From the NCBI RefSeq assembly GCF_054482525.1, contig NZ_CM137006.1: 64,000 nucleotides of DNA. One strand, 5' to 3'. Position 1 is the first letter of the stretch. Each line of letters opens with the position of its first letter. The notes beneath the pieces were generated by a model. It searched no databases. It had not been told where the DNA came from and saw nothing but the letters and a program-made list of their open reading frames with translations. A program made the position numbers and the translations under genes. Shown piece by piece: positions 2,346 to 12,491 of the stretch.

Positions 2346-2442
2346 GTAGGGAAGGGGGAGATTATGGAACTTTGCTCCCTGTAAGGACTAATTATTTTTG
2401 CATATTACTTCATTGGCTGCGATGATTTTTCGTTAATATCCA

Positions 2443-2650
2443 TTATGTTAAGAAGTTCGGGATGAGTGTGAACTCATTGGATTTTTTATCCGTCTTGATC
2501 TGCCGAAGGATCAGACCATACATTGTCGAGATCGCAATGATGATATGAGTTGTTCCTCTGCCACGGCTCTAATCAAAAAAGAGCAGGAGTGCTTTTCCAT
2601 CTATTGCGATGATGGCTTTATTATCTGAAGGATGACAGTCACATTTAAAA
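2443..2650 (-). pseudogene. Remnant of H-repeat (ISAs1-family) transposase, truncated both sides and frame-disrupted
   Basis: Minus-strand translation gives DNKAIIAIDGKALLLFFD* and [33 protein letters not shown], resembling the conserved DKDVIAIDGKTLR...[32 protein letters not shown] core of H-rpt proteins (recalled, e.g. YhhI). Confidence 0.45.
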
Positions 2651-2923: not shown

Positions 2924-3319
2924 TTATCTTTTATTTACAGTTTCAATGCAATCAGCGACAAGTTGGTGTGGATTTAGATTCTTCAGATATGGTCTTATGA
3001 TCTTTCCCTTGCTTAATAAATAGCATGTATAGGATTCGGAAAGTCCAGCATCTATTTTGTACATCATTATTCTAGATAAGGATGTGAGAAATGCCTTGTT
3101 ATCATTAGCAGCCATATATGCCAGTCCGAGTTCAGCCTCTGCGGCTTTACATGAAAAATAGCTAAGTGAACACGCTTTTCGTCCCTCTTGGGTACTGGCT
3201 GATATTAGTGCCCATAATATTGCCTTGTCTGCCAAATCCAACTCTCTCTGAAATTGGTTTACAGTAACTGCATTCGCAGAAATAGAGAAAAAAAGCACAA
3301 TTGTTAATAACCTTGCCAT
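2924..3319 (-). CDS. Orphan immunity-like protein for the adjacent Rhs C-terminal tip; predicted signal peptide
   Basis: 131-aa ORF starting ATG 5 bp after the Rhs-fragment stop; N-terminus MARLLTIVLFFSISANA looks like a Sec signal peptide; AT-rich codon usage. Confidence 0.6.
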   Translation of the reverse strand: MARLLTIVLFFSISANAVTVNQFQRELDLADKAILWALISASTQEGRKACSLSYFSCKAAEAELGLAYMAANDNKAFLTSLSRIMMYKIDAGLSESYTCYLLSKGKIIRPYLKNLNPHQLVADCIETVNKR

Positions 3320-3323
3320 ATTT

Positions 3324-4133
3324 CTAGTCCGTCACTGTTAATGTGCTATCTGGCTCTGAAAATATTAGCTCATTTAATTTTTGCATGTCATTAGATGAAC
3401 CAGTTATACAACCCTCGGAACAGAATCGAGGTCCTAAAGATGGACCAAAAGCGTTTAAACAACTATGTGTTAAAAATCCATCACGATTATACGTTTCTGT
3501 ATTTGCTGACGGTACTAAACGTATACCATTAGGTTTTCTATTAGTTGCTCCAGGACCATTAACATTCCAGCTCCATACCCCTGGAGGTATTGGGCCTCTA
3601 TTTTGTAAGTGTGTACAACCAGGATTATTTTTACATTGCATATTATTACCATTATTACCAGAGGCGACTGAAATAGTAAGCACACCATAAGAATTATCAT
3701 CACTTGGCGTATCTGAAACGCATGAAAGCATACCTAAAGTTATGCTGTATAAACAGGTCGCTAATCCCAACGGGTCAATATCAGTTATCGGATTCAACGG
3801 ATACTGATAAAAATTCCATCCCCCCTTCAGTCCAATCGGATCCTGAGTGATATACCGCCCCTGCAGCTGGTGCGGGTTCTCTTCATTCAGCAGGTTGCCC
3901 CACTCATCGTATTCTGCGCACCATTCTGTTGCCCCTTCCGTGCTGATAAGCACCAGCGGCAGGCCGCGATGGTCGCAGTGGTACAGGTGGATTTTTCGCG
4001 CCGGCGTGTACACCGGGTCCATCTGGTTTTGCATCTGCGCCACCGTCAGGCCGCACGATGCCAGCCAGCGTCGGCTTTCCTCACTCACCCGGTCAGCCAG
4101 GATTTCACTTTCCAGCCGGTCGAGCATCTGCAC
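3324..4133 (-). CDS. Orphan Rhs C-terminal fragment (core end plus divergent toxin tip); no own ATG start
   Basis: Translation [29 protein letters not shown]...[18 protein letters not shown] is near-identical to the rhsA core end in this window, then diverges after the DPxGL motif into a unique Cys-rich tip; ORF-track start is a GTG that is an internal Val codon in rhsA. Confidence 0.7.
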
Positions 4134-4174: not shown

Positions 4175-5017
4175 CTATGAACGCTTCAGCTTATCAATAA
4201 CGGAAGTTATAATTTCATTGTCATCAAACTTGTACAACATAGTATCTAAAACAGGAAGTAGCGTTTTATCACCTAATTCACCCGCAGCTTCAATGATATC
4301 ATCATAAACAGTATTTTTTTTTAACTCATCGCATAAAACAGATAAAACCCTTTTATCTTTTCTGTAGGAAAGTCCGATTATTGCTTCAATACGGACTTCC
4401 TCATTTTTATCCTGAAGCATCTCCACAAAATAATCCCTAATATCACTATTATCATATTTATTGATATTTATTGCAAATGCGGCCCAGTTTCTGACATCTC
4501 CATTTGGATCTTTTAACAGATTAATCAATAGTGGAATTGTTTCTTTATCATTGATAACAGAAATAGCAAATGCCGTAGCACGTCTGACATTAGCCGATTT
4601 ATCAAAAGCAGTAATTTGAGATTGTTCTACTATTTTAGGTGAATAAATTGGGTTTTTCTTGCATCGCTGAGCAGTTGACTCGATTGCTGTAGCTCGAACG
4701 CAAGCACTTTTATCATTCAGTGCCATCTTTTTTAAAATATTAAAAACGCTATCTTCGCATTTTTTGCAAACTTTTATTTGCCCGAGTATAAATGCTCCTA
4801 TATCTCTACGGATATAATTTTTGTCAGCGCAGAATTCAATTGCCAATCTAACAGCGTCTTGCCCACCTCTTAGCTGCAATACTCTGGCAGATGAAATCCT
4901 TTTCAATGAATTGCGATTATCAAGTAAGCGAAATAATTCATCATCATTTAGTTTCTTACATTGATTGTATAAACCATACTCTTTACTTGCCTTTCTTTTC
5001 TGGTATGTATTCGACAT
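4175..5017 (-). CDS. yibA: HEAT-repeat protein
   Basis: Translation MSNTYQKRKASKEYGLYNQCKKLNDDELFRLLDN... matches recalled YibA (280 aa); GGAGG RBS 8 nt upstream of ATG at 5017. ORF-track start at 5032 is a 5-codon extension. Confidence 0.85.
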   Translation of the reverse strand: MSNTYQKRKASKEYGLYNQCKKLNDDELFRLLDNRNSLKRISSARVLQLRGGQDAVRLAIEFCADKNYIRRDIGAFILGQIKVCKKCEDSVFNILKKMALNDKSACVRATAIESTAQRCKKNPIYSPKIVEQSQITAFDKSANVRRATAFAISVINDKETIPLLINLLKDPNGDVRNWAAFAININKYDNSDIRDYFVEMLQDKNEEVRIEAIIGLSYRKDKRVLSVLCDELKKNTVYDDIIEAAGELGDKTLLPVLDTMLYKFDDNEIITSVIDKLKRS

Positions 5018-5121
5018 TGCAGGAACCTCCATAAAGACTATCTTTTTCTATCGTTTGACTGTCTGGAGTCCTCCACCTACTCTGCCATCAGCACACACGA
5101 TGTTTGTTTATCCTTACATAC

Positions 5122-5391
5122 TTATTTTCCGTGGCCAAAATTTAGAATTCTCCCGTCATTTTTGCCTATTTCTATAATAAAAACCCTACCAGCAATTTGG
5201 TCTGATTCAATGGTGCCTTCAACAATCCAACTTGTTGGTAATTCCATGATTTTGTATGGTTTTTCTTCTTCTTCTTCGGCATCATGTCCATAACGATTTT
5301 TAACATACATCTCAGCTAATTCCAATGCTATAGCTTTATTTTTGACCAAATTTCTAACGGTGTATTTCCCCTCACTTTCATACTTGCGCAT
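5122..5391 (-). CDS. Small NTF2-like (YbbC/YhhH-family-like) immunity-type protein
   Basis: 89-aa ORF, ATG start; shares KxxAxxLAExYxKxxYG...KPY...W.xEG...DG pattern with the 115-aa ORF at 6994..7341 and with Rhs-linked YbbC/YhhH proteins as recalled; no clear RBS. Confidence 0.5.
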   Translation of the reverse strand: MRKYESEGKYTVRNLVKNKAIALELAEMYVKNRYGHDAEEEEEKPYKIMELPTSWIVEGTIESDQIAGRVFIIEIGKNDGRILNFGHGK

Positions 5392-5472
5392 TATAATAAT
5401 ATTATTACACTGCGCCCATGTGTTGTATGTAAAAATAAAGATACAATCACATAGGTTCTGAATAATATTTTC

Positions 5473-5838
5473 TTATACGTTGTCATGTATTTTGCAAACA
5501 TTAGGCAATCCTTTTCCATTTATTATATCTTTCCCATGATTATCTATTGCTTTAAAATTTTCACCTATTGACCTTGAATTACTACAATCACTTCCAGTGA
5601 AATCTGAGTTATTCAGAATAGCATTCATCAGAGCCGCATTGCGAAAGACAGCATTTCTAGTTGATGTATGTTGAATCATTACATTTCTTAAATGAGTTTT
5701 TTCAAATTTCGCCCCATCAAGACAATAACCATTGAGGGTGGCACGATGTAGATTCATCCCGCTAAAATCATATCCAGCAAGAGTGGTACTATCTATCTCA
5801 AGAAATTTATTGGTTATTAAAAATGCGATTCTTATCAT
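5473..5838 (-). CDS. Pentapeptide-repeat protein (orphan immunity-like)
   Basis: Translation shows consecutive pentapeptide-like units (ATLNGYCLDGAKFEKTHLRNVMIQHTSTRNAVFRNAALMNAILNNSDFTGSD); first ATG at 5838 preceded by GGAGGA RBS; ORF-track TTG start at 5850 is probably an extension. Confidence 0.6.
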   Translation of the reverse strand: MIRIAFLITNKFLEIDSTTLAGYDFSGMNLHRATLNGYCLDGAKFEKTHLRNVMIQHTSTRNAVFRNAALMNAILNNSDFTGSDCSNSRSIGENFKAIDNHGKDIINGKGLPNVCKIHDNV

Positions 5839-5931
5839 CTGTTCCTCCAATCATCTAACTCCCGAAAAATTTGAAAACCAGAACCTCGCTTAGGCCTGTG
5901 TCCATACTACGTGGGTAGGATTATTCTACGT

Positions 5932-5974
5932 ACTACGCTGTTGTCCCTTACGTGCTGATAAGCGCCAGCGGCAG
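5932..5974 (-). repeat. Isolated ~43-bp scar homologous to the Rhs core-end coding sequence
   Basis: ...gctgttgtcccttacgtgctgataagcgccagcggcagg aligns to rhsA at about 8775..8817 and to the orphan fragment at about 3935..3966, with mismatches; flanks are unrelated. Confidence 0.5.
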
Positions 5975-6090
5975 GTTATTCGGTTTGCGTCGTTGAGTTC
6001 ACTACACTAAAACTCCGTGCCCATATAACCCAAGTCGGAGGCATGCCTTCCTCTGGTTCGTTCCATCTAAAATGTCTATACATAACATGG

Positions 6091-6333
6091 TTATTCAATT
6101 ATTTTTTCTTTGAGTTTATTCTCAATCCAGCTGTCTTTATACCTGATGAAAATTTGACATTCACCAATATTATCAATGTCACCAACATTTGTGTTTCGAA
6201 TTTGACCAACAGCAACTATAGTTGATTCAAAATATTCAACATTGACATTATCTGTAATTATTGAAATTATATAATCATCTGGAATAGAGCCATTAGGAGT
6301 TATATTGAAGAAACTAACATCTGAAAATACCAA
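6091..6333 (-). CDS. Hypothetical small protein (80 aa), possible orphan immunity gene
   Basis: Open frame with only a TTG start and no internal Met; AT-rich; lies downstream of a decayed coding remnant. Weak call. Confidence 0.3.
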   Translation of the reverse strand: MVFSDVSFFNITPNGSIPDDYIISIITDNVNVEYFESTIVAVGQIRNTNVGDIDNIGECQIFIRYKDSWIENKLKEKIIE

Positions 6334-6559
6334 ATAACCATCTTCTAAGTCTTCATTATCATAAAAATTCCATTCTGTTGTACCATAGGCTATCCTTGAG
6401 ATTAAATTAACCTGAATTCTAATTTGTTTACTCCATAAATCAAATTCAATTTTTTATTGCTCGATCACCAAGATATATTCTATCAAACATATTACCCCCC
6501 TATTCTAAAAATACTCAGGCATTCCGCACATTATATCAGCCTCATCTTGATTGCTTCCC

Positions 6560-6840
6560 GTTTCCCAATACGGCGGCGCGGGGAGTCATAAAGGTAAGAA
6601 ATTTCCAGCAGTACGGCGTCCTATTGTTCACGGCGGTAATGCACCAGCCAGTATTGGCTATCGTAGTGATAACCGTGTAACCTGCCGCCGCATCGCGTAT
6701 CTAATGTTCATTCTTTTCCATAAACCGTCCGTACACATTGTGATAGTAAAAATACAATACATCTTCGCTGATGCGGTTATTCTGCTGCATGTGGGAAGCG
6801 CCGAATACTGCTCCCGGTATGGCCAGTAATTACTATTTAG
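6560..6840 (-). pseudogene. Decayed coding remnant (possible orphan toxin-tip fragment)
   Basis: GC-richer patch in AT-rich DNA; minus-strand frames give protein-like stretches (LAIPGAVFGASHMQQNNRISEDVLYFYYHNVYGRFMEKNEH*, AGYTVITTIANTGWCITAVNNRTPYCWKF...) broken by stops; ORF-track 67-aa and 92-aa ORFs overlap here. Confidence 0.3.
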
Positions 6841-6993
6841 TACGACGTTAGGGGGAGTCACTTAATCTCACAGATACTTCAAGTAACAGATGAAAATCGC
6901 TCCTGAAATGAAAAAGAAATTTTTTTGAATGTGTTCCTGTCAAATCAAGTGGTTTTTTCGTCGATATGTAGAGTCATATTGTACACAAAATAG

Positions 6994-7341
6994 TTACGAA
7001 ACACACCTTGGTAAAATATTTGAATCGTCTGAACAGTGGATTATTTTGTGTATTACATCCAACGCTTGCCCATCTTTTTTCGCTATTAGTATTGTAAAAT
7101 TTCCTCCTAACGTCTTCGGTTGTTTTCCCTCGATTTTCCAACAATTATTGTCATCTGTAATACTATATGGTTTCTGAAATTCTGCTTTTTCTTTCCCGTA
7201 TATATATTTAATATAAACATATGATAATTCCAAAGCCATTTCACGACTATTTACTAAAATTTCCGCTGAATTTTCTTTTCCAAATACTGAGTGTGATATT
7301 GTAAACAATATCATAATAAGTAATATTAGTGAGTTTCTCAT
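6994..7341 (-). CDS. Secreted NTF2-like (YbbC/YhhH-family-like) immunity-type protein
   Basis: 115-aa ORF, ATG with AGGTG RBS; N-terminal signal peptide MRNSLILLIMILFTISHSVFG; shares motif pattern with 5122..5391. Confidence 0.6.
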   Translation of the reverse strand: MRNSLILLIMILFTISHSVFGKENSAEILVNSREMALELSYVYIKYIYGKEKAEFQKPYSITDDNNCWKIEGKQPKTLGGNFTILIAKKDGQALDVIHKIIHCSDDSNILPRCVS

Positions 7342-7509
7342 GCTCTACACCTATCGAATCTCAAAAGTTGTGGGTAAAACATTACATTCAGAATATATGA
7401 TATTCTTACCATCGGAATCCATTTTTCCAAATCGACCTTCTGGTGTTCCTGGATACCCATTAAGAACATATTTTTTCGAATAGTTAATTTATTTTCTCAG
7501 GAAGAGATT

Positions 7510-8079
7510 TTATTTTTCTTCACTACGAAGTAGTTCATGCTGTACTTTTGTTAAACATTCGTAAGACTCATCTTTGTTCGGGAGATGTGCTGTCATTCGA
7601 GCATAAGTTGGCTTCTCATCTTTAAAATATTTAACCATGATTGAATTATCAAGGACTGCCAACAACTGAGCTGGATCACTGCTCTTTTTTTGATAGATAC
7701 CCGCTCTTATATAACTTCTAAACCGATCGCCGAGAAACGCCGTTTTTTCTGCTGTATTTAGCAACTCCTGCAACGTTCCTTTGGTTGCATGATTTTCATT
7801 AAGGCGTAGTGATCCGACGCGAATTAAGAGTCTCGCCCCGCTTGGTGTGAATTTGTTATTTTTACATATACCAAGCTCTGTTTGCCAATAATACTCACCT
7901 ATGTCCTCATTCTGATACCATCTCCACATGGTTTTATTATTTAAGACAGGAAACGCGGAAAAAATAGTACCCTTAGTGAAAATGGTAAAGCAATCTTGAT
8001 CTTTAGCTTGTGTTTCGCAATTAGCTATAACACCAAAACTAACGAATATCATCAGCAAAAAGAACAAAGCTCTTTTCAT
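7510..8079 (-). CDS. Putative cognate immunity protein of RhsA (secreted)
   Basis: 189-aa ORF whose ATG overlaps the rhsA stop by 4 bp (8076..8079); N-terminal signal peptide [19 protein letters not shown]; AT-rich relative to the rhsA core. Confidence 0.65.
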
Positions 8080-11000
8080 TTTCTTATTCCTCTCGATGTT
8101 CTCTGTTTCATTTTAGCTAAAATTTCACCCAAATCATCTATCCCTGCTGTTGCTGGCCCATCGGGTTTATTAATGTCTGGGAATAAATAGGGTTCTGCAC
8201 AAGTATATCCTGGTGGTAATTGAGTTGTTGGCCAAGTTGTCTGTGGCAGGTAATCACTTGCTGTCTTTGTCTCCATCCCTGGATACTGGGGATCATCCTG
8301 CGGCGTACAAGTCAGATTGGGTTTTACCCACTTCCTGCAATACAGTGTGTAATCGTAAGGACTTAATGCTCTGAAGAATGTTTTGAAAACATTAGGCGCA
8401 CTACTGGCCTGGTCAATAGGATATGGCAGTCTTAATTGTTTCGCTATGTCTGGCAACTTACTTGGATCGGGCGTAGGCGGTTTGTTGGGTCTCGCTCCAT
8501 ATCCGCCATTATTTAAGTGTCCATATTTAGATGCCAGTCCCATTGAATCTATATACTGAACCGGATTTAACGGATACTGATAAAAATTCCATCCCCCCTT
8601 CAGTCCAATCGGATCCTGAGTGATATACCGCCCCTGCAGCGGGTCATAATAGCGGTGGCGGTTGTAATACAGGCCTGACTCCTCATCATACTGCTGACCC
8701 GGCAGGCGGATGAGCTGCTGCAGCTGGTGCGGGTTATCCTCACTCAGCTGGTTACCCCATTCATCGTATTCTGCGTACCATTCTGTTGCCCCTTCCGTGC
8801 TGACAAGCGCCAGCGGCAGGCCGCGATGGTCGCAGTGGTACAGGTGGATTTTTCGCGCCGGCGTGTACACCGGGTCCATCTGGTTTTGCATCTGCTCCAC
8901 CGTCAGGCCGCACGATGCCAGCCAGCGGCGGCTTTCCTCACTCACCCGGTCAGTAAGGATTTCACTTTCCAGCCGGTCGAGCATCTGCACCAGCACCGGC
9001 GGGAACACCACATCACCACCGTCTTCACCGCCGGACTGCTGAAGCGCATCCGCCAGGCTGCGGCGCTGCGTTTTCGCCAGCTCACCGGTGGCAGTTTCAA
9101 CTCTGATGAGTGGCGTGAAGCTCCCCGGCTGATAAACCGTCTGGATGCGGGTTCTGTCGTTCTGTATCGTGGTCAGCCGGTCGCCGTCCCAGCCGTACCA
9201 GGTCACTTCCGGTTTCCGTGACAGCGACATCCAGCCCGTCAGGTCCCGTTCACGCCGCCACACCCGTTTTGCCACCCTGCGGCCCAGCGGGTCGTAAAGA
9301 TAGCGACTTTCGACCAGCGGCTCTGCATATTGTGTCCGCGTGTAGTGCACCAGCCGGTGCTGACTGTCGTAATGGTACTGGTGAGTCCGCTCATCATCCG
9401 TGCGGATAACCCCTTCCGGGATGAGGTCGGTTTTCTCTGTCAGCCTGCCGTGACGGTCATACCGGTAAAGATAGTGCGCGTCACGGGCGATACGGTTATC
9501 CGGCCACATGCTGAGGGTGCTGTCCGGGTGCAGCTCCGGGTCGGGCAGGCGGTTACCTGCCGGGTCTGTGGCATACGGGATGCGGATATCAAGGTTCGCT
9601 GCCGTGGTGTGAACGCCGGTCAGCCTGCCGGAGTCGCTGTAGCTGTAACTCCGGGTCTGGCGCGGGCTGCTGATGCGGATGAGTTCGCCGTTGTCGTTCC
9701 AGGTGTAATCGCGGTCATACTGCAGGCTGTTCAGATGCTGGCTCTGTAACTGCCCGGCAGGGGTGTAAGCGGTGGTGAGTTCATAACGGCCGAAGCTGCG
9801 CAGCGTTTCCCGGTGCAGGCGGTCGCGGGTGAAATCCACCAGCGGTGTGTCGCCGAGTTTCATGCCTGACAGCCAGCCGCTGCCGTAGGTCAGCCATTCC
9901 ACGGCGGGCAGGCTGTCCGGTATACAGCGGTTCGCCAGTCCCTGCGCGTTGTAAGCGTGTCTGGTTTCATGCTGCCAGAGCAGTGCTTCCGTCTGCGGGT
10001 GATGCACCGTCTGGCGCTCACCGGTCAGGCGGCCTTTCTCATCATACCCGTAATGCACCGTCACCCGGTGGCCTTCGCTGAGATGGCTGATTTGTGTCAG
10101 CCAGCCGCGTTCGTCATACTGCCACTGCTCTGCCGGTTCACCCTTCACGGTGCGGTGAGTGAGGCGGTCTGCTTCGTCATAGTGCCAGTGGGTGACCAGC
10201 CCCTCATCCTCGCTGCGGATAAGTTTGCCGGTCAGGTCGTGGTGATAACGCTGTGTGCGGCCGTCAAAGCCGGTTTCCTGTATCAGCCGGTCAAGTACAT
10301 CGTAACGGAAGGTGGTGTGGCTGCCGTTTTCACTGGTCAGGCGGATGACCCGTCCGGCAGCATCGTATTCCATACTGCGCGTCAGACCGCCCTGCGTGGT
10401 ACGGATGGCCTTTCCCCACGCATCGTACTGTGTCCCGTTTCTGCTGCCGTCCGGGGCAATGACGGCGGTCAGGTCACCGGCGGCGTTGTATTCATACCGC
10501 GTTTCATGGCCCTGCATGTCTTTCACCGCAATTAACTGTCCACGGCTGTCGTATGCGCGGTACTGGCTCAGGCCTTCCTCGCGGTGCACCGCCGTCACCT
10601 GACCAAAACGGTCATGGTCATAACGGGTTACATAACCGGAACAGTCAGTGACGGTCAGCAACTGACCGTAACGGCTCCATGTCATGGTTTTCCGGCTGCC
10701 GGTGGCATCCTCCGTTGCGCAGGGTAAGTCACTGTGTGGATTATCATAACGGTAGCGGGTGATATCGCCGTCAGGGGCAGTTTCCTGAATCAGACGGCCG
10801 GATTCATCATATTCCCGGCGTATTTCCAGCCCGTCAGTCCCGGTGGCTGACGTTAACTGGCTGTGGTGGTTATAGTAAAACGCCGATGCCCTGCCATCCG
10901 GCGTGGTGATGCGCGTGATGAGGCCCGTCACCACATCCGGGCTGTATTCTGTTGTCCGGCCTGCGGCATCCGTCTGTGCCTTAAGCCTGCCCACCGCATC

Positions 11001-12263
11001 AAACTGACTCTGCGTGACGCTGCCGTCCGCGTGTTCCTTTTTCACCACCCGCTTCAGCCCGCCTTCGCCCTGCGTGTGCAGCACTTCACGGCGGTCCAGA
11101 CTGTCGGTGATGGTGATGCGGTCTTTCTCATACTGATACGTGTAGCTTAAGCCTGCCGGGTTTAGCTGCTCTGTCACCCGCCCGTCGCTGTCGTAACGGT
11201 AACGGATTTCCGGCCGGCCCGTGTGACGGTGCGCCACCATCCGGCCCCGGTATTTATCATCGTAAGTAAAGCTGCGCACCTGTGTATTGCTGCGGTCATA
11301 CACCGCCGCCAGTTCGCCGCGCGGCGTCCAGCCATAGCGTACCAGCGGCGCGGCTGGCAGGTTATCCGGATATTCCGGGTCGTGCGTCAGCCACACGGCA
11401 GACAGACGGATGCCGTTGTCCCGGCCATATTCGGTGTAACCCGGCAGGGTATCAGGAAAAGCGGACGGTTCCGTCCCGCCGGAAATGGCCTGCTGCCGGG
11501 CTTCTTCTGCCCGCTGCGCCTGCGTGGTCAGTACCAGCCGGAAGTGACGCCCGGCACCATCCGTCACGCCGCTGAATTCGCCGCCAGCCTCACGGTGGAA
11601 CGTCTGTGTGCGCCCGAAGCGGTCCACCAGCCCGGTCAGTACCCGGTACGGCGGCAGCGGCGCAGGCAGCACCTCATCCGCCTCCGGCACCCGCTCACAC
11701 CAGCCGAGTACCCACCACGGCCCCTGCGGACTGTTCGTCGCCAGATAACGATGCGGACTCAGGCGAAGCTCTTCCGGCAGCGCCTGCCAGAGTGCGGCCA
11801 GCCGGTGACCTTCATCCAGTTTCGCCACGCCGCCACGCACCAGCCAGAGTGACTCGCTGCGGCTGTAACCGTCCTCACCGGGAAACAGGTGCTCAAAATA
11901 CAGGCTCCTGCCGCCGTTATCACTGAGTATCAGTGTGTTATCGCGCAGCTGTAAGCGGATATCCGCGGGCATTTTCCAGCCGGGGCCGAGGCTCCCCACC
12001 GGCGCGGGCGTTTTTGTCCGGTAACTGCTGTAGGTGCGGGAGAGGATGAACGGCAGCGGGCCGGGCAGGGCAAGGTCGGTTTCGCCGGGAAGGACCTTCG
12101 CGCCGAGCAGCGGATTGACCGGATGGCCGGACGTCACCCCGCCGGGGCACACCGAACAGGCCACGCCGGTGGGGGCACCGATGCGCACCCCGGCTGAACC
12201 CTGAACAATGCTACCGCCATACTGCGTCATGTCGCCCTGACGCGCCGCCGGTTTTCCGCTCAT
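8076..12263 (-). CDS. rhsA: Rhs-family polymorphic toxin: PAAR-like N-terminus, YD-repeat core, variant C-terminal tip
   Basis: 1395-aa ORF beginning [29 protein letters not shown], repeated YD/RY motifs, conserved [15 protein letters not shown] near the end followed by a ~170-aa proline-rich tip; sits beside yibF as rhsA does in K-12; GC-rich core. Confidence 0.95.
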
Positions 12264-12491
12264 CTGCTCATCCTTGTTTTATCGGGTTATTTGTCTGCTG
12301 ACAGGCGAAACCCTACAGATTTATAAGAAAGCCTTAAGTGAGATATCTGTCAGATAAGAACAATTAGGAAAATATTTATATCACCATGATAAATATCTGA
12401 TTTATTGGGAGGTAACAAACCATCAACATTTTCTGCCCTTTTTCCCATCACCAGGCCATACTGATATTTTTCCTCGCACAAAGGACTCGGC

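Follow-up and report, generated by a model that had tools for sequence, protein, structure and literature searches.

Probable remains of displaced Rhs toxin/immunity cassettes between rhsA and yibA of Escherichia coli PCN033

In Escherichia coli K-12 MG1655, rhsA and yibA are separated by a gap of only 20 nt. At the rhsA locus of E. coli PCN033, which lies on the minus strand of the window analyzed here (the whole 64,000-nt stretch from contig NZ_CM137006.1), the interval between the two genes comprises an immunity gene of the ybfC type plus 2.5 kb of AT-rich sequence (5033..7509), which is therefore extra in comparison to K-12. What is this additional DNA, and could it still protect the cell? 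A first-pass annotation, made from the sequence without database searches, had proposed an array of orphan immunity-like genes left behind by the successive displacement of toxin/immunity modules at an Rhs 3′ end. Here, we followed up this proposal by profile searches, alignments to other rhs loci, and counts among complete genomes.

Results

Layout of the rhsA-yibA interval. The RhsA protein of PCN033 is full length. Its clade-I core extends to about position 8539 and up to there shares 95.6% identity with K-12 rhsA; the tip is of the ybfO type, and tip and flank are 96.7% identical to an orphan at the rhsC locus of BL21. Pfam gave no match for the tip, and neither Pfam nor NCBIfam gave one for the 189-aa ybfC-type protein, which is presumed from its immunity position to be the cognate immunity of the current RhsA tip. 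The ybfC-type gene lies outside 5033..7509 but is part of the array. The GC content was 35.4% across the 2.5-kb region versus 61.7% in the rhsA core, in agreement with the first-pass description of an AT-rich stretch of about 2.5 kb between the rhsA immunity gene and yibA that differs from K-12. All of the elements listed at that stage were recovered in place and on the minus strand, including the four open reading frames (ORFs) 7341..6994, 6333..6091, 5850..5473, and 5391..5122. These small genes do not represent chance ORFs, as Pfam matches to Imm-NTF2-2, DUF6258, and Pentapeptide_4 were obtained. All units of the array share the strand of the full-length rhsA and lie within the low-GC "tip" trough. 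Stubs of toxin tips were located at 7488..7354, 6562..6505, 5556..5473, and about 5069..5038. An Rfam scan of 4500..8200 returned nothing at an E value of ≤0.1. The features, in the direction of rhsA, are as follows.

8076..12263, minus: full-length rhsA, 1,395 aa, ORF without internal stop
7510..8079, minus: ybfC-type 189-aa gene, overlapping the rhsA stop by 4 nt; homologue of BL21 YbfC
7354..7488, minus: tip stub, last 45 codons of a DUF4329 (Tox-JAB-2) Rhs tip (93% aa identity)
6994..7341, minus: orphan Imm-NTF2-2 immunity gene (NTF2-115), 115 aa (Pfam PF15631, E = 5e-16)
6558..6790, minus: decayed, divergent Rhs core fragment, the "GC patch" (tblastn, RhsA residues 919 to 1000, E = 1.6e-10)
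6505..6562, minus: tip stub, last 19 codons (TGSNQDEADIMCGMPEYF and stop); the same C-terminal peptide precedes DUF6258 in strain 2014C-3061
6091..6490, minus: DUF6258 (PF19772) gene, candidate immunity, frameshifted (Pfam E = 6e-24 across the repaired frameshift)
5922..5975, minus: Rhs core scar (LPLALIST), 54 nt, core residues 1149 to 1165
5860..5931, plus: IS3 right end (transposase 3′ end and terminal repeat), 72 nt, aligned to the 3′ terminus of K-12 IS3
5473..5850, minus: chimeric 125-aa ORF, truncated pentapeptide gene plus DUF4329 tip end (Pentapeptide_4, E = 2e-5)
5122..5501, minus: yhhH homologue (Imm-NTF2-2), frameshifted (tblastn, 87% identity to K-12 YhhH in two frames)
5038..5069, minus: tip stub, about the last 10 codons (SRQSNDRKR and stop) of an Ntox34 tip as in K-12 RhsA, immediately 5′ of yibA
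4175..5032, minus: yibA (HEAT repeat), intact (NCBIfam PRK09687, E = 7e-137)

Read from these alignments, the array is made up of four units: a DUF4329 stub with NTF2-115, a stub of a tip with no Pfam domain and DUF6258, a DUF4329 stub with the yhhH homologue, and an Ntox34 stub with yibA. Two core remnants, the IS3 end, and the truncated pentapeptide gene lie between them.

The NTF2-115 unit. The first gene had been described as a secreted 115-aa NTF2-like protein; it gave the Imm-NTF2-2 match (E = 5e-16) and has an N terminus resembling a signal peptide. In E. coli GCA_021758325.1, a full-length Rhs carrying a DUF4329 tip is followed, after 9 nt, by an 84%-identical homologue; the 45-codon stub matched the C terminus of this Rhs, and DNA homology over 7488..6922 was 90.5%. 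A search with the 45-aa stub peptide itself returned tiny ORFs only, and the toxin was reached via the neighbor of the immunity homologue. In PCN033, the gene carries a 2-nt deletion near its 3′ end, and the final "TK" is replaced by a 17-aa tail. The NTF2 unit is present in 847 of the 5,426 complete genomes, and its own toxin tip is present in none of them (0/5,426).

The core fragment and the DUF6258 unit. The GC-richer patch had been taken for a decayed remnant of a toxin tip. It is indeed decayed coding sequence (47% GC, one stop, and one frameshift); however, it derives not from a tip but from the Rhs core, as it matches RhsA core residues 919 to 1000 (57% identity over 42 aa and 39% over 28 aa by tblastn), and the remainder of the core is missing. 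With its repaired translation as the query, we retrieved one 55-aa ORF, which is a further copy of the same block, and no intact relative. The adjoining segment 6562..5922 showed 96.6% homology to strain 2014C-3061, in which an intact 133-aa DUF6258 protein is encoded 14 nt after Rhs; no Pfam domain was detected in the toxin tip preceding it. In PCN033, an A-run near 6455 carries a −2 frameshift that inactivates the DUF6258 gene. The weak 80-aa ORF of the first-pass annotation (6333..6091) was correctly placed but is not a separate gene; it constitutes the downstream part of the 133-aa gene. Run lengths of 6, 7, and 8 A's were seen. The intact tip with DUF6258 occurred in 57 of 5,426 complete genomes, and merely the stub with DUF6258 in about 787. 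Profile and place directly after a toxin tip make DUF6258 a candidate Rhs immunity family.

The core scar, the IS3 end, and a pentapeptide chimera. A short Rhs-core scar had also been noticed. Its protein match alone is weak (tblastn E = 0.43), but the DNA is 81 to 89% identical to several rhs cores, and the BL21 equivalent is annotated as an "RHS domain" pseudogene by PGAP, which substantiates the observation. The scar represents the 5′ beginning of another orphan core fragment that in 2014C-3061 goes on as a yibJ-like orphan; here, it is cut off by the IS3 end, to which IS3 copies from thousands of records could be matched.

The 5′ portion of the following chimeric ORF (ATG 5838 to about 5560) corresponds to the 5′ two-thirds of a pentapeptide-repeat gene that stands alone and encodes about 160 aa, and it is 59% identical to residues 1 to 95 of a 161-aa relative. 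Its 3′ portion (5556..5473), fused in frame, is made up of the final 28 codons of a DUF4329 tip of the RhsB type, with 75% identity of these 28 aa to the K-12 RhsB C terminus. PGAP places two partial pseudogenes at this ORF. A bona fide pentapeptide gene was rejected, since PGAP and the alignments agree on two truncated pieces. Thus, the pentapeptide-repeat sequence reported by the first-pass annotation is present (Pentapeptide_4, E = 2e-5), but its reading as an orphan immunity gene fails: the ORF is a chimeric pseudogene, and the closest full-length relatives of its 5′ portion are not located at toxin loci. Three specific full-length relatives (59%, 50%, and 44% identity) emerged as the closest ones from a representative search that was swamped by generic pentapeptide proteins. 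They are located in housekeeping surroundings (fdhD/azlCD, pabB-yoaH-yoaC, and others), and none of the three adjoins a toxin. A DNA search of other E. coli genomes revealed no copies of the fragment outside this array, and the fragment is present in about 275 genomes only. The truncated gene is probably an accidental passenger.

The yhhH homologue and yibA units. The 89-aa NTF2-like ORF (5391..5122) had been assigned to the right family but is not a whole gene; it represents the mature part of a frameshifted yhhH homologue, following an internal Met. The frameshift (−4) lies in the signal-peptide region near 5439, and PGAP labels the gene "frameshifted." After repair, the Imm-NTF2-2 match reached an E value of 8e-19. 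In K-12, the YhhH gene and the 3′ end of rhsB overlap, the tip of RhsB being DUF4329, and an RhsB-type DUF4329 tip was found in 2,583 of 5,426 complete genomes at a coverage of at least 80%.

The region from 5069 to 3861 aligns at 96% with the flank of K-12 rhsA, starting 32 nt before the rhsA stop. The tip of K-12 RhsA is Ntox34, and a passage of PMC3150448 that cites Vlazny and Hill (1995) states that the RhsA C-terminal region of K-12 is neutralized by yibA. Because the K-12-type RhsA tip is absent from PCN033, yibA is an orphan immunity gene in this strain. Downstream of yibA, a Tlde1 orphan (4133..3324) was observed that has kept its tip and carries a 28-aa deletion in its core.

Mosaic structure and distribution of the array. 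The orphan ybfO/ybfC module at BL21 rhsC aligned colinearly with segment 9581..5922 (96.7%), which indicates that much of the array moved between rhs loci as one block and not stepwise at rhsA. Segment 5559..4671 was colinear at 91% with the K-12 rhsB 3′ end, yhhH, and yrhC. The borders of the homologous blocks fall within Rhs core sequence or inside toxin ORFs, and ISAs1/ISEc1 elements border the blocks in BL21, K-12, and GCA_021758325.1. The whole array was detected in 272 of the 5,426 complete genomes at 97.5 to 100% conservation; strain 47258 carries it in a different flanking context, and the frameshifts are common to both strains. The dN/dS ratios relative to functional copies were 0.16 to 0.44, values resting on few substitutions, which do not separate constraint from decay in the lineage. 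Promoter-like sites were no commoner than in shuffled sequence, and the promoter/terminator scan as a whole, being no better than shuffled, is uninformative on expression.

In other E. coli strains, full-length Rhs toxins are directly followed by homologues of three of the four small genes (NTF2-115, DUF6258, and yhhH) but not of the pentapeptide gene. Neither of the two observations that would have spoken against the first-pass proposal was made: the region is not identical to that of K-12, and three of the four small genes have Rhs-linked homologues.

Discussion

Origin of the 2.5-kb region. We consider it highly probable that the 2.5 kb are the remains of several Rhs toxin/immunity cassettes that were displaced from an rhs 3′ end by new tips. 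New tips would have recombined onto the conserved core, pushing older cassettes downstream, and the displaced cassettes would then have lost most or all of their toxin-coding DNA, so that a 3′ stub and the immunity gene remained. The proximal half (tip, ybfC, NTF2, core remnant, DUF6258, and scar) was probably transferred between rhs loci as a block by recombination within the core, and the distal half (yhhH homologue, stub, and yibA) probably corresponds to the arrangement that was later truncated at K-12 rhsB. The displacement proposed at the outset is thus supported by the stub of a lost toxin before each orphan, but for much of the array the stepwise build-up at rhsA gives way to block transfer. 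The data directly show the homologies, the junctions, the lesions in the genes, and the toxin-immunity pairs of other strains. We infer that the immunity genes were initially retained because clone-mates still fire the old toxin and that they decay once the matching toxin becomes rare.

Several observations count against this explanation. Classical displacement predicts core fragments close to the resident core together with whole tips; however, the remnants show about 57% protein identity or comprise only 54 nt, and no whole displaced tip is left within 5033..7509. The order of events is not recoverable, and the stubs could stem from insertion or from later deletion. Furthermore, the pentapeptide fragment lacks a tie to toxin loci.

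An actively maintained defensive "polyimmunity" island, in which the orphans are expressed (for example, by read-through from rhsA) and selected for protection from other E. coli Rhs toxins, is a rival explanation. The concept has been described by Zhang et al. (2012, PMC3482391), the genes are co-oriented with rhsA, and no terminator-like site was predicted on that strand from rhsA to yibA by the scan that performed no better than on shuffled sequence. Further points in its favor are the following: yibA is intact and its matching toxin type is present in K-12, the RhsB-type DUF4329 tip is common (2,583 genomes at ≥80% coverage), the partner tip of DUF6258 is intact in 57 genomes, and the array is 97.5 to 100% conserved in 272. 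However, frameshifts disrupt two of the three immunity-type genes and the C terminus of the third is altered, the frameshifts recur in strain 47258, and the specific toxin of NTF2-115 was found in 0 of 5,426 complete genomes. In addition, stubs, core remnants, and an IS end separate the genes at spacings of 100 to 650 nt, unlike the loci of Zhang et al. Maintenance as a defensive island is therefore unlikely. The suggestion that the orphans protect against Rhs toxins of competitors is accordingly weak for PCN033, given the frameshifts in DUF6258 and the yhhH homologue and the altered C terminus and missing cognate toxin of NTF2-115. In PCN033, the array is probably a fossil for the most part, and only yibA, and possibly NTF2-115, could still protect.

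A silent reservoir for toxin switching, from which orphan cassettes recombine with the rhsA core, has a reported precedent in the Salmonella orphan rhs (Koskiniemi et al. 2014, PMC3967940). BL21 and K-12 have the tip now carried by PCN033 RhsA solely in orphan form, at rhsC, which indicates that orphan tips do join full-length cores. Within 5033..7509, however, no toxin domain survives, and thus there is nothing to switch on: the stubs comprise 10 to 45 codons, the core remnants are 54 nt long or decayed, and only the Tlde1 orphan beyond yibA (4133..3324) keeps a tip, with the 28-aa core deletion. We regard this reading as very improbable for the 2.5-kb region. Slightly less credit still is due to delivery of the extra DNA by a mobile element (IS3 or H-repeat/ISAs1) unrelated to Rhs tip exchange. 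The IS3 right end (5860..5931) does adjoin the foreign pentapeptide fragment, and ISAs1/ISEc1 flank homologous blocks in BL21, K-12, and GCA_021758325.1; but only 72 nt of IS3 are present, in the middle of the array instead of at its borders, and the block borders lie in Rhs core or toxin ORFs. An insertion sequence would explain at most how the pentapeptide piece arrived and how one deletion arose, and a mobile-element origin of the whole insert was rejected on these grounds.

Displacement and trimming of Rhs cassettes remains our preferred explanation, and it invites a tentative generalization, to which we give limited credence: at the clade-I rhs loci of E. coli, cassettes that have been displaced may regularly be cut down to units of a toxin 3′ stub plus immunity gene, the immunity genes may outlive their toxins species-wide, and the array would then preserve a legible trace of Rhs toxins now extinct. 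Stubs might arise when a new tip is attached through an illegitimate crossover within the ORF of the resident toxin, or selection might remove the toxic part and spare the immunity gene together with translation signals in the toxin 3′ end. Under the same tentative reading, the A6/A7/A8 tract of DUF6258 could also work as an on/off switch.

Significance. The array is a clear but ordinary case of Rhs tip swapping in which most leftovers are broken. C-terminal displacement and orphan modules are already known phenomena, with the mechanism in the literature since 2009 to 2012, and most of the pieces are already named in RefSeq. The PCN033 locus nevertheless offers a well-resolved example of Rhs toxin turnover, with four successive toxin-stub/immunity units, and shows whole array segments exchanged among rhsA, rhsB, and rhsC. 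Immunity genes persist in about 16% of complete E. coli genomes while the toxin is gone from that sample. These data are useful for the annotation of Rhs loci and for thinking on toxin/immunity dynamics and introduce no new principle.

Comparison with known systems. Rhs C-terminal displacement arrays with "dissociated tips" were described by Jackson et al. (2009, PMC2935791), who found E. coli clade-I loci to be generally without downstream dissociated tips. Like those arrays, the PCN033 array adjoins the 3′ end of a full-length rhs gene directly, shares its strand, and occupies a low-GC trough; homologues of its remnants are attached to full-length rhs genes at other loci or in other strains (K-12 rhsB-yhhH, K-12 rhsA-yibA, GCA_021758325.1, and 2014C-3061), and core-derived fragments (6790..6558 and 5975..5922) mark earlier 3′ ends. 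In contrast to them, its units are trimmed to toxin 3′ stubs and immunity genes, and the core fragments are tiny or divergent instead of near-identical repeats. The orphan toxin/immunity modules described for CDI and Rhs systems (Poole et al. 2011, PMC3150448; Koskiniemi et al. 2014) are similar in that the main toxin gene has cassettes downstream of it and immunity genes outlast the delivery domain; these modules retain a complete, reactivatable toxin domain, which the units in 5033..7509 have lost.

Closer relatives also differ. In PCN033, the ybfO-type tip sits on a full-length rhsA core, unlike the orphan ybfO-ybfC at rhsC of K-12 and BL21, and yibA is complete and not, as in the K-12 rhsB-yhhH-yrhC flank, cut by ISEc1. 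Moreover, the two blocks, unlike in K-12 and BL21, are linked in PCN033 through the IS3 end and the pentapeptide fragment. The Imm-NTF2-2 (PF15631) genes resemble known partners of Tox-JAB-2/DUF4329, as homologues are located directly downstream of DUF4329 in K-12 and GCA_021758325.1; in the window, only DUF4329 stubs accompany them. Finally, several unrelated immunity genes in tandem, in one orientation and with strain-variable content, are reminiscent of polyimmunity loci. In the latter, immunity genes are never interrupted by toxin genes or cassettes and intergenic distances are short (Zhang et al. 2012), whereas the PCN033 array contains mostly damaged genes, with spacers of 100 to 650 nt and with remnants of toxins and cores as well as an IS end between them. 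It is a decayed polymorphic-toxin locus and not a compact immunity operon.

Gene content of the rhsA-yibA interval

The interval of 2,477 bases matched E. coli PCN033 (NZ_CP006632.1) at 100% and lies within the annotated minus-strand order selA-yibF-rhsA ... yibA ... yibH-yibI-mtlA. Because yibA of K-12 MG1655 starts 20 nt past rhsA, the interval is additional relative to K-12, as the first-pass annotation had proposed, and so is the preceding 189-aa ybfC-type gene (7510..8079). The ORFs that it named were all found on the minus strand in an ORF listing of the window, and its AT-rich interval with a GC-richer patch was confirmed (35% GC versus 62% in the rhsA core; 47% in the patch at 6558..6790). 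PGAP calls rhsA (8076..12263, minus strand) a pseudogene with an "internal stop"; in the window, this ORF translates without interruption into 1,395 aa, and the flag looks like an annotation artifact.

Pfam placed both NTF2-like ORFs in Imm-NTF2-2 (E=5e-16 and E=8e-19), assigned the stretch that includes the "weak 80-aa ORF" to DUF6258 (E=6e-24, spanning a frameshift that was repaired for the search), and detected pentapeptide repeats in the 125-aa ORF (E=2e-5). A tblastn search with the resident RhsA aligned the patch to residues 919-1000 (57% and 39% identity) with a stop and a frameshift. The decay proposed for about 6560..6840 was thus borne out, and the source is the Rhs core. The proposed Rhs core scar (5975..5922, core residues 1149-1165, LPLALIST) is weak as a protein match alone (tblastn E=0.43); it is backed by 81-89% DNA identity to several rhs cores and by the BL21 equivalent, annotated by PGAP as an "RHS domain" pseudogene. 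An Rfam scan gave no match, and promoter and terminator scans were uninformative.

Toxin stubs and their partners

The immunity-type genes of the array each have a toxin's last codons directly upstream:

7488..7354 (minus), DUF4329 tip stub, last 45 residues, 93% identical to a full-length Rhs of E. coli GCA_021758325.1
6562..6505 (minus), tip stub, last 19 residues, same tip as upstream of the intact DUF6258 gene in strain 2014C-3061
3' end of the 125-aa ORF (5473..5850, minus), RhsB-type DUF4329 tip stub, last 28 residues, 75% identity
Directly before yibA (4175..5032, minus), K-12 RhsA tip (Ntox34) stub, about 10 codons

The expectation that homologues of the orphan genes follow full-length Rhs genes elsewhere held for NTF2, DUF6258, and yhhH but not for the pentapeptide gene, whose closest full-length relatives have housekeeping neighbors. 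In GCA_021758325.1, an NTF2 protein 84% identical to that of the 115-aa orphan (6994..7341, minus) is encoded 9 nt past the full-length Rhs. In 2014C-3061, an intact 133-aa DUF6258 gene lies 14 nt after an Rhs tip in which a Pfam search found no domain. The yhhH homologue (5122..5501, minus), which follows the RhsB-type stub, is 87% identical to K-12 YhhH. Tox-JAB-2 (DUF4329) was paired with Imm-NTF2-2 by Zhang et al. 2012 (PMC3482391), and neutralization of the K-12 RhsA C terminus by yibA was demonstrated by Vlazny & Hill 1995, as cited in Poole et al. 2011 (PMC3150448).

The 125-aa pentapeptide ORF is a chimera: its first ~97-100 residues share 59% identity with residues 1-95 of a 161-aa protein, the remainder is the DUF4329 stub, and PGAP annotates two partial pseudogenes. 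Its three closest full-length relatives lie in housekeeping-gene neighborhoods and not at toxin loci, and a DNA search found the fragment in ~275 E. coli genomes, only inside this array. It is probably a passenger beside the adjoining IS3 end rather than an immunity gene. Two metagenome contigs carry a 108-aa pentapeptide protein (5001..5327 of one, L019), 50% identical to the fragment, between yoaH and yoaC homologues, and IS3 adjoins yoaC in some E. coli, an arrangement that may hint at the way in which the IS3 end and the pentapeptide gene came together.

A mosaic of blocks from rhs loci

The locus is composed of the following segments:

12400..8539, K-12-like rhsA core, 95.6% identity
9581..5922, BL21 rhsC-locus orphan module, colinear at 96.7%
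5860..5931, IS3 right end (transposase 3' end and terminal repeat), between the two large blocks
5559..4671, K-12 rhsB 3' end, yhhH, and yrhC, 91% identity
5069..3861, K-12 DNA from 32 nt before the rhsA stop on through yibA, 96% identity

The BL21 module comprises a partial Rhs, ybfC, an NTF2 gene, DUF6258, and an RHS fragment. Given this colinearity, the full-length PCN033 rhsA now bears a tip known only as an rhsC orphan in B and K-12 strains, along with 1.6 kb of rhsC-locus downstream remnants. The IS3 end cuts the core scar.

Window positions 4671..5559 are colinear with the K-12 rhsB 3' flank (4842..5734 of the extracted locus), which contains yhhH, the 10-codon Ntox34 stub, and yrhC, a 5' piece of yibA interrupted by ISEc1. 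An rhsA-type array is thus the apparent ancestor of this K-12 flank. The array also occurs in strain 47258 (97.5% identity), where it occupies an rhsB-side flank bordered by yhhJ/rbbA and by a Mu-like prophage, with the Rhs truncated by the prophage. The rhs gene of 2014C-3061 lies between rpmE/priA and yibH/mtlA. Both contexts suggest that rhs loci have undergone large rearrangements with one another.

Condition and distribution of the orphan genes

yibA is intact. DUF6258 (6091..6490, minus) has a -2 frameshift within an A-run near its 5' end (~6450..6456), which is A6 in the window, A7 in BL21 (~7041 of the rhsC locus), and A8 in 2014C-3061 (~7096 of the rhs locus); of these lengths, only A8 keeps the reading frame, and that copy is intact. 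Such variation may mark a site prone to slippage, or perhaps a phase-variable tract. A -4 deletion in the signal-peptide region of the yhhH homologue means that the 89-aa ORF begins at an internal Met, without an export signal. Two nucleotides are deleted close to the end of the 115-aa NTF2 gene, giving a 17-aa tail instead of the last two residues. In 47258, PGAP also calls the yhhH homologue "frameshifted," and the DUF6258 ORF is similarly shortened.

Past yibA lies a 269-aa orphan (3324..4133, minus) consisting of a yibJ-type core fragment with a 28-aa deletion and a Tlde1 (L,D-transpeptidase-like) tip, followed by a frameshifted Imm57 gene (2924..3319, minus); neither the K-12 yibJ tip nor yibG is present downstream of yibA in the window. 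In the stretch from the Imm57 pseudogene to yibH there is a 225-nt remnant (2418..2642), ~78% identical to the ISAs1-family element ISEc1 (H-repeat).

Among 5426 complete E. coli genomes, 272 carry the complete array and 847 the NTF2 unit (6994..7488). The unit's own DUF4329 toxin tip was found in none of the 5426, and the two assemblies in which it was found, GCA_021758325.1 and GCA_002971965.1, are both drafts; the nearest relative of the tip among the complete genomes is the RhsB-type tip (about 67% DNA identity). The intact tip accompanies DUF6258 in 57 of these genomes, and the stub with DUF6258 alone occurs in about 787.

Relation to known displacement models

The proposed successive displacement of toxin/immunity modules agrees with these data: the array fits displacement of C-terminal tips as modeled by Jackson et al. 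2009 (PMC2935791) and the concept of orphan modules in Poole et al. 2011 (PMC3150448). Fresh tip/immunity cassettes would recombine onto the conserved core, and older ones would shift downstream. Two refinements are supported by the comparisons. Array segments travel as blocks among rhs loci via core homology, as is evident from the rhsC-type block at rhsA, from strain 47258, and from the K-12 rhsB flank, which is like the yhhH-yibA junction of PCN033. Displaced units here have also been reduced to stub and immunity gene, either at insertion or later; the DUF6258 unit, with its core remnant, deletion, and 19-codon stub, points to later deletion.

Immunity genes would initially be retained since kin still produce the old toxin. 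In PCN033, the array is mostly fossil, so the suggested protection against rival Rhs toxins is at best partial. The array, most of which is already annotated in RefSeq, is a real, well-explained, and ordinary feature, another instance of a known phenomenon.
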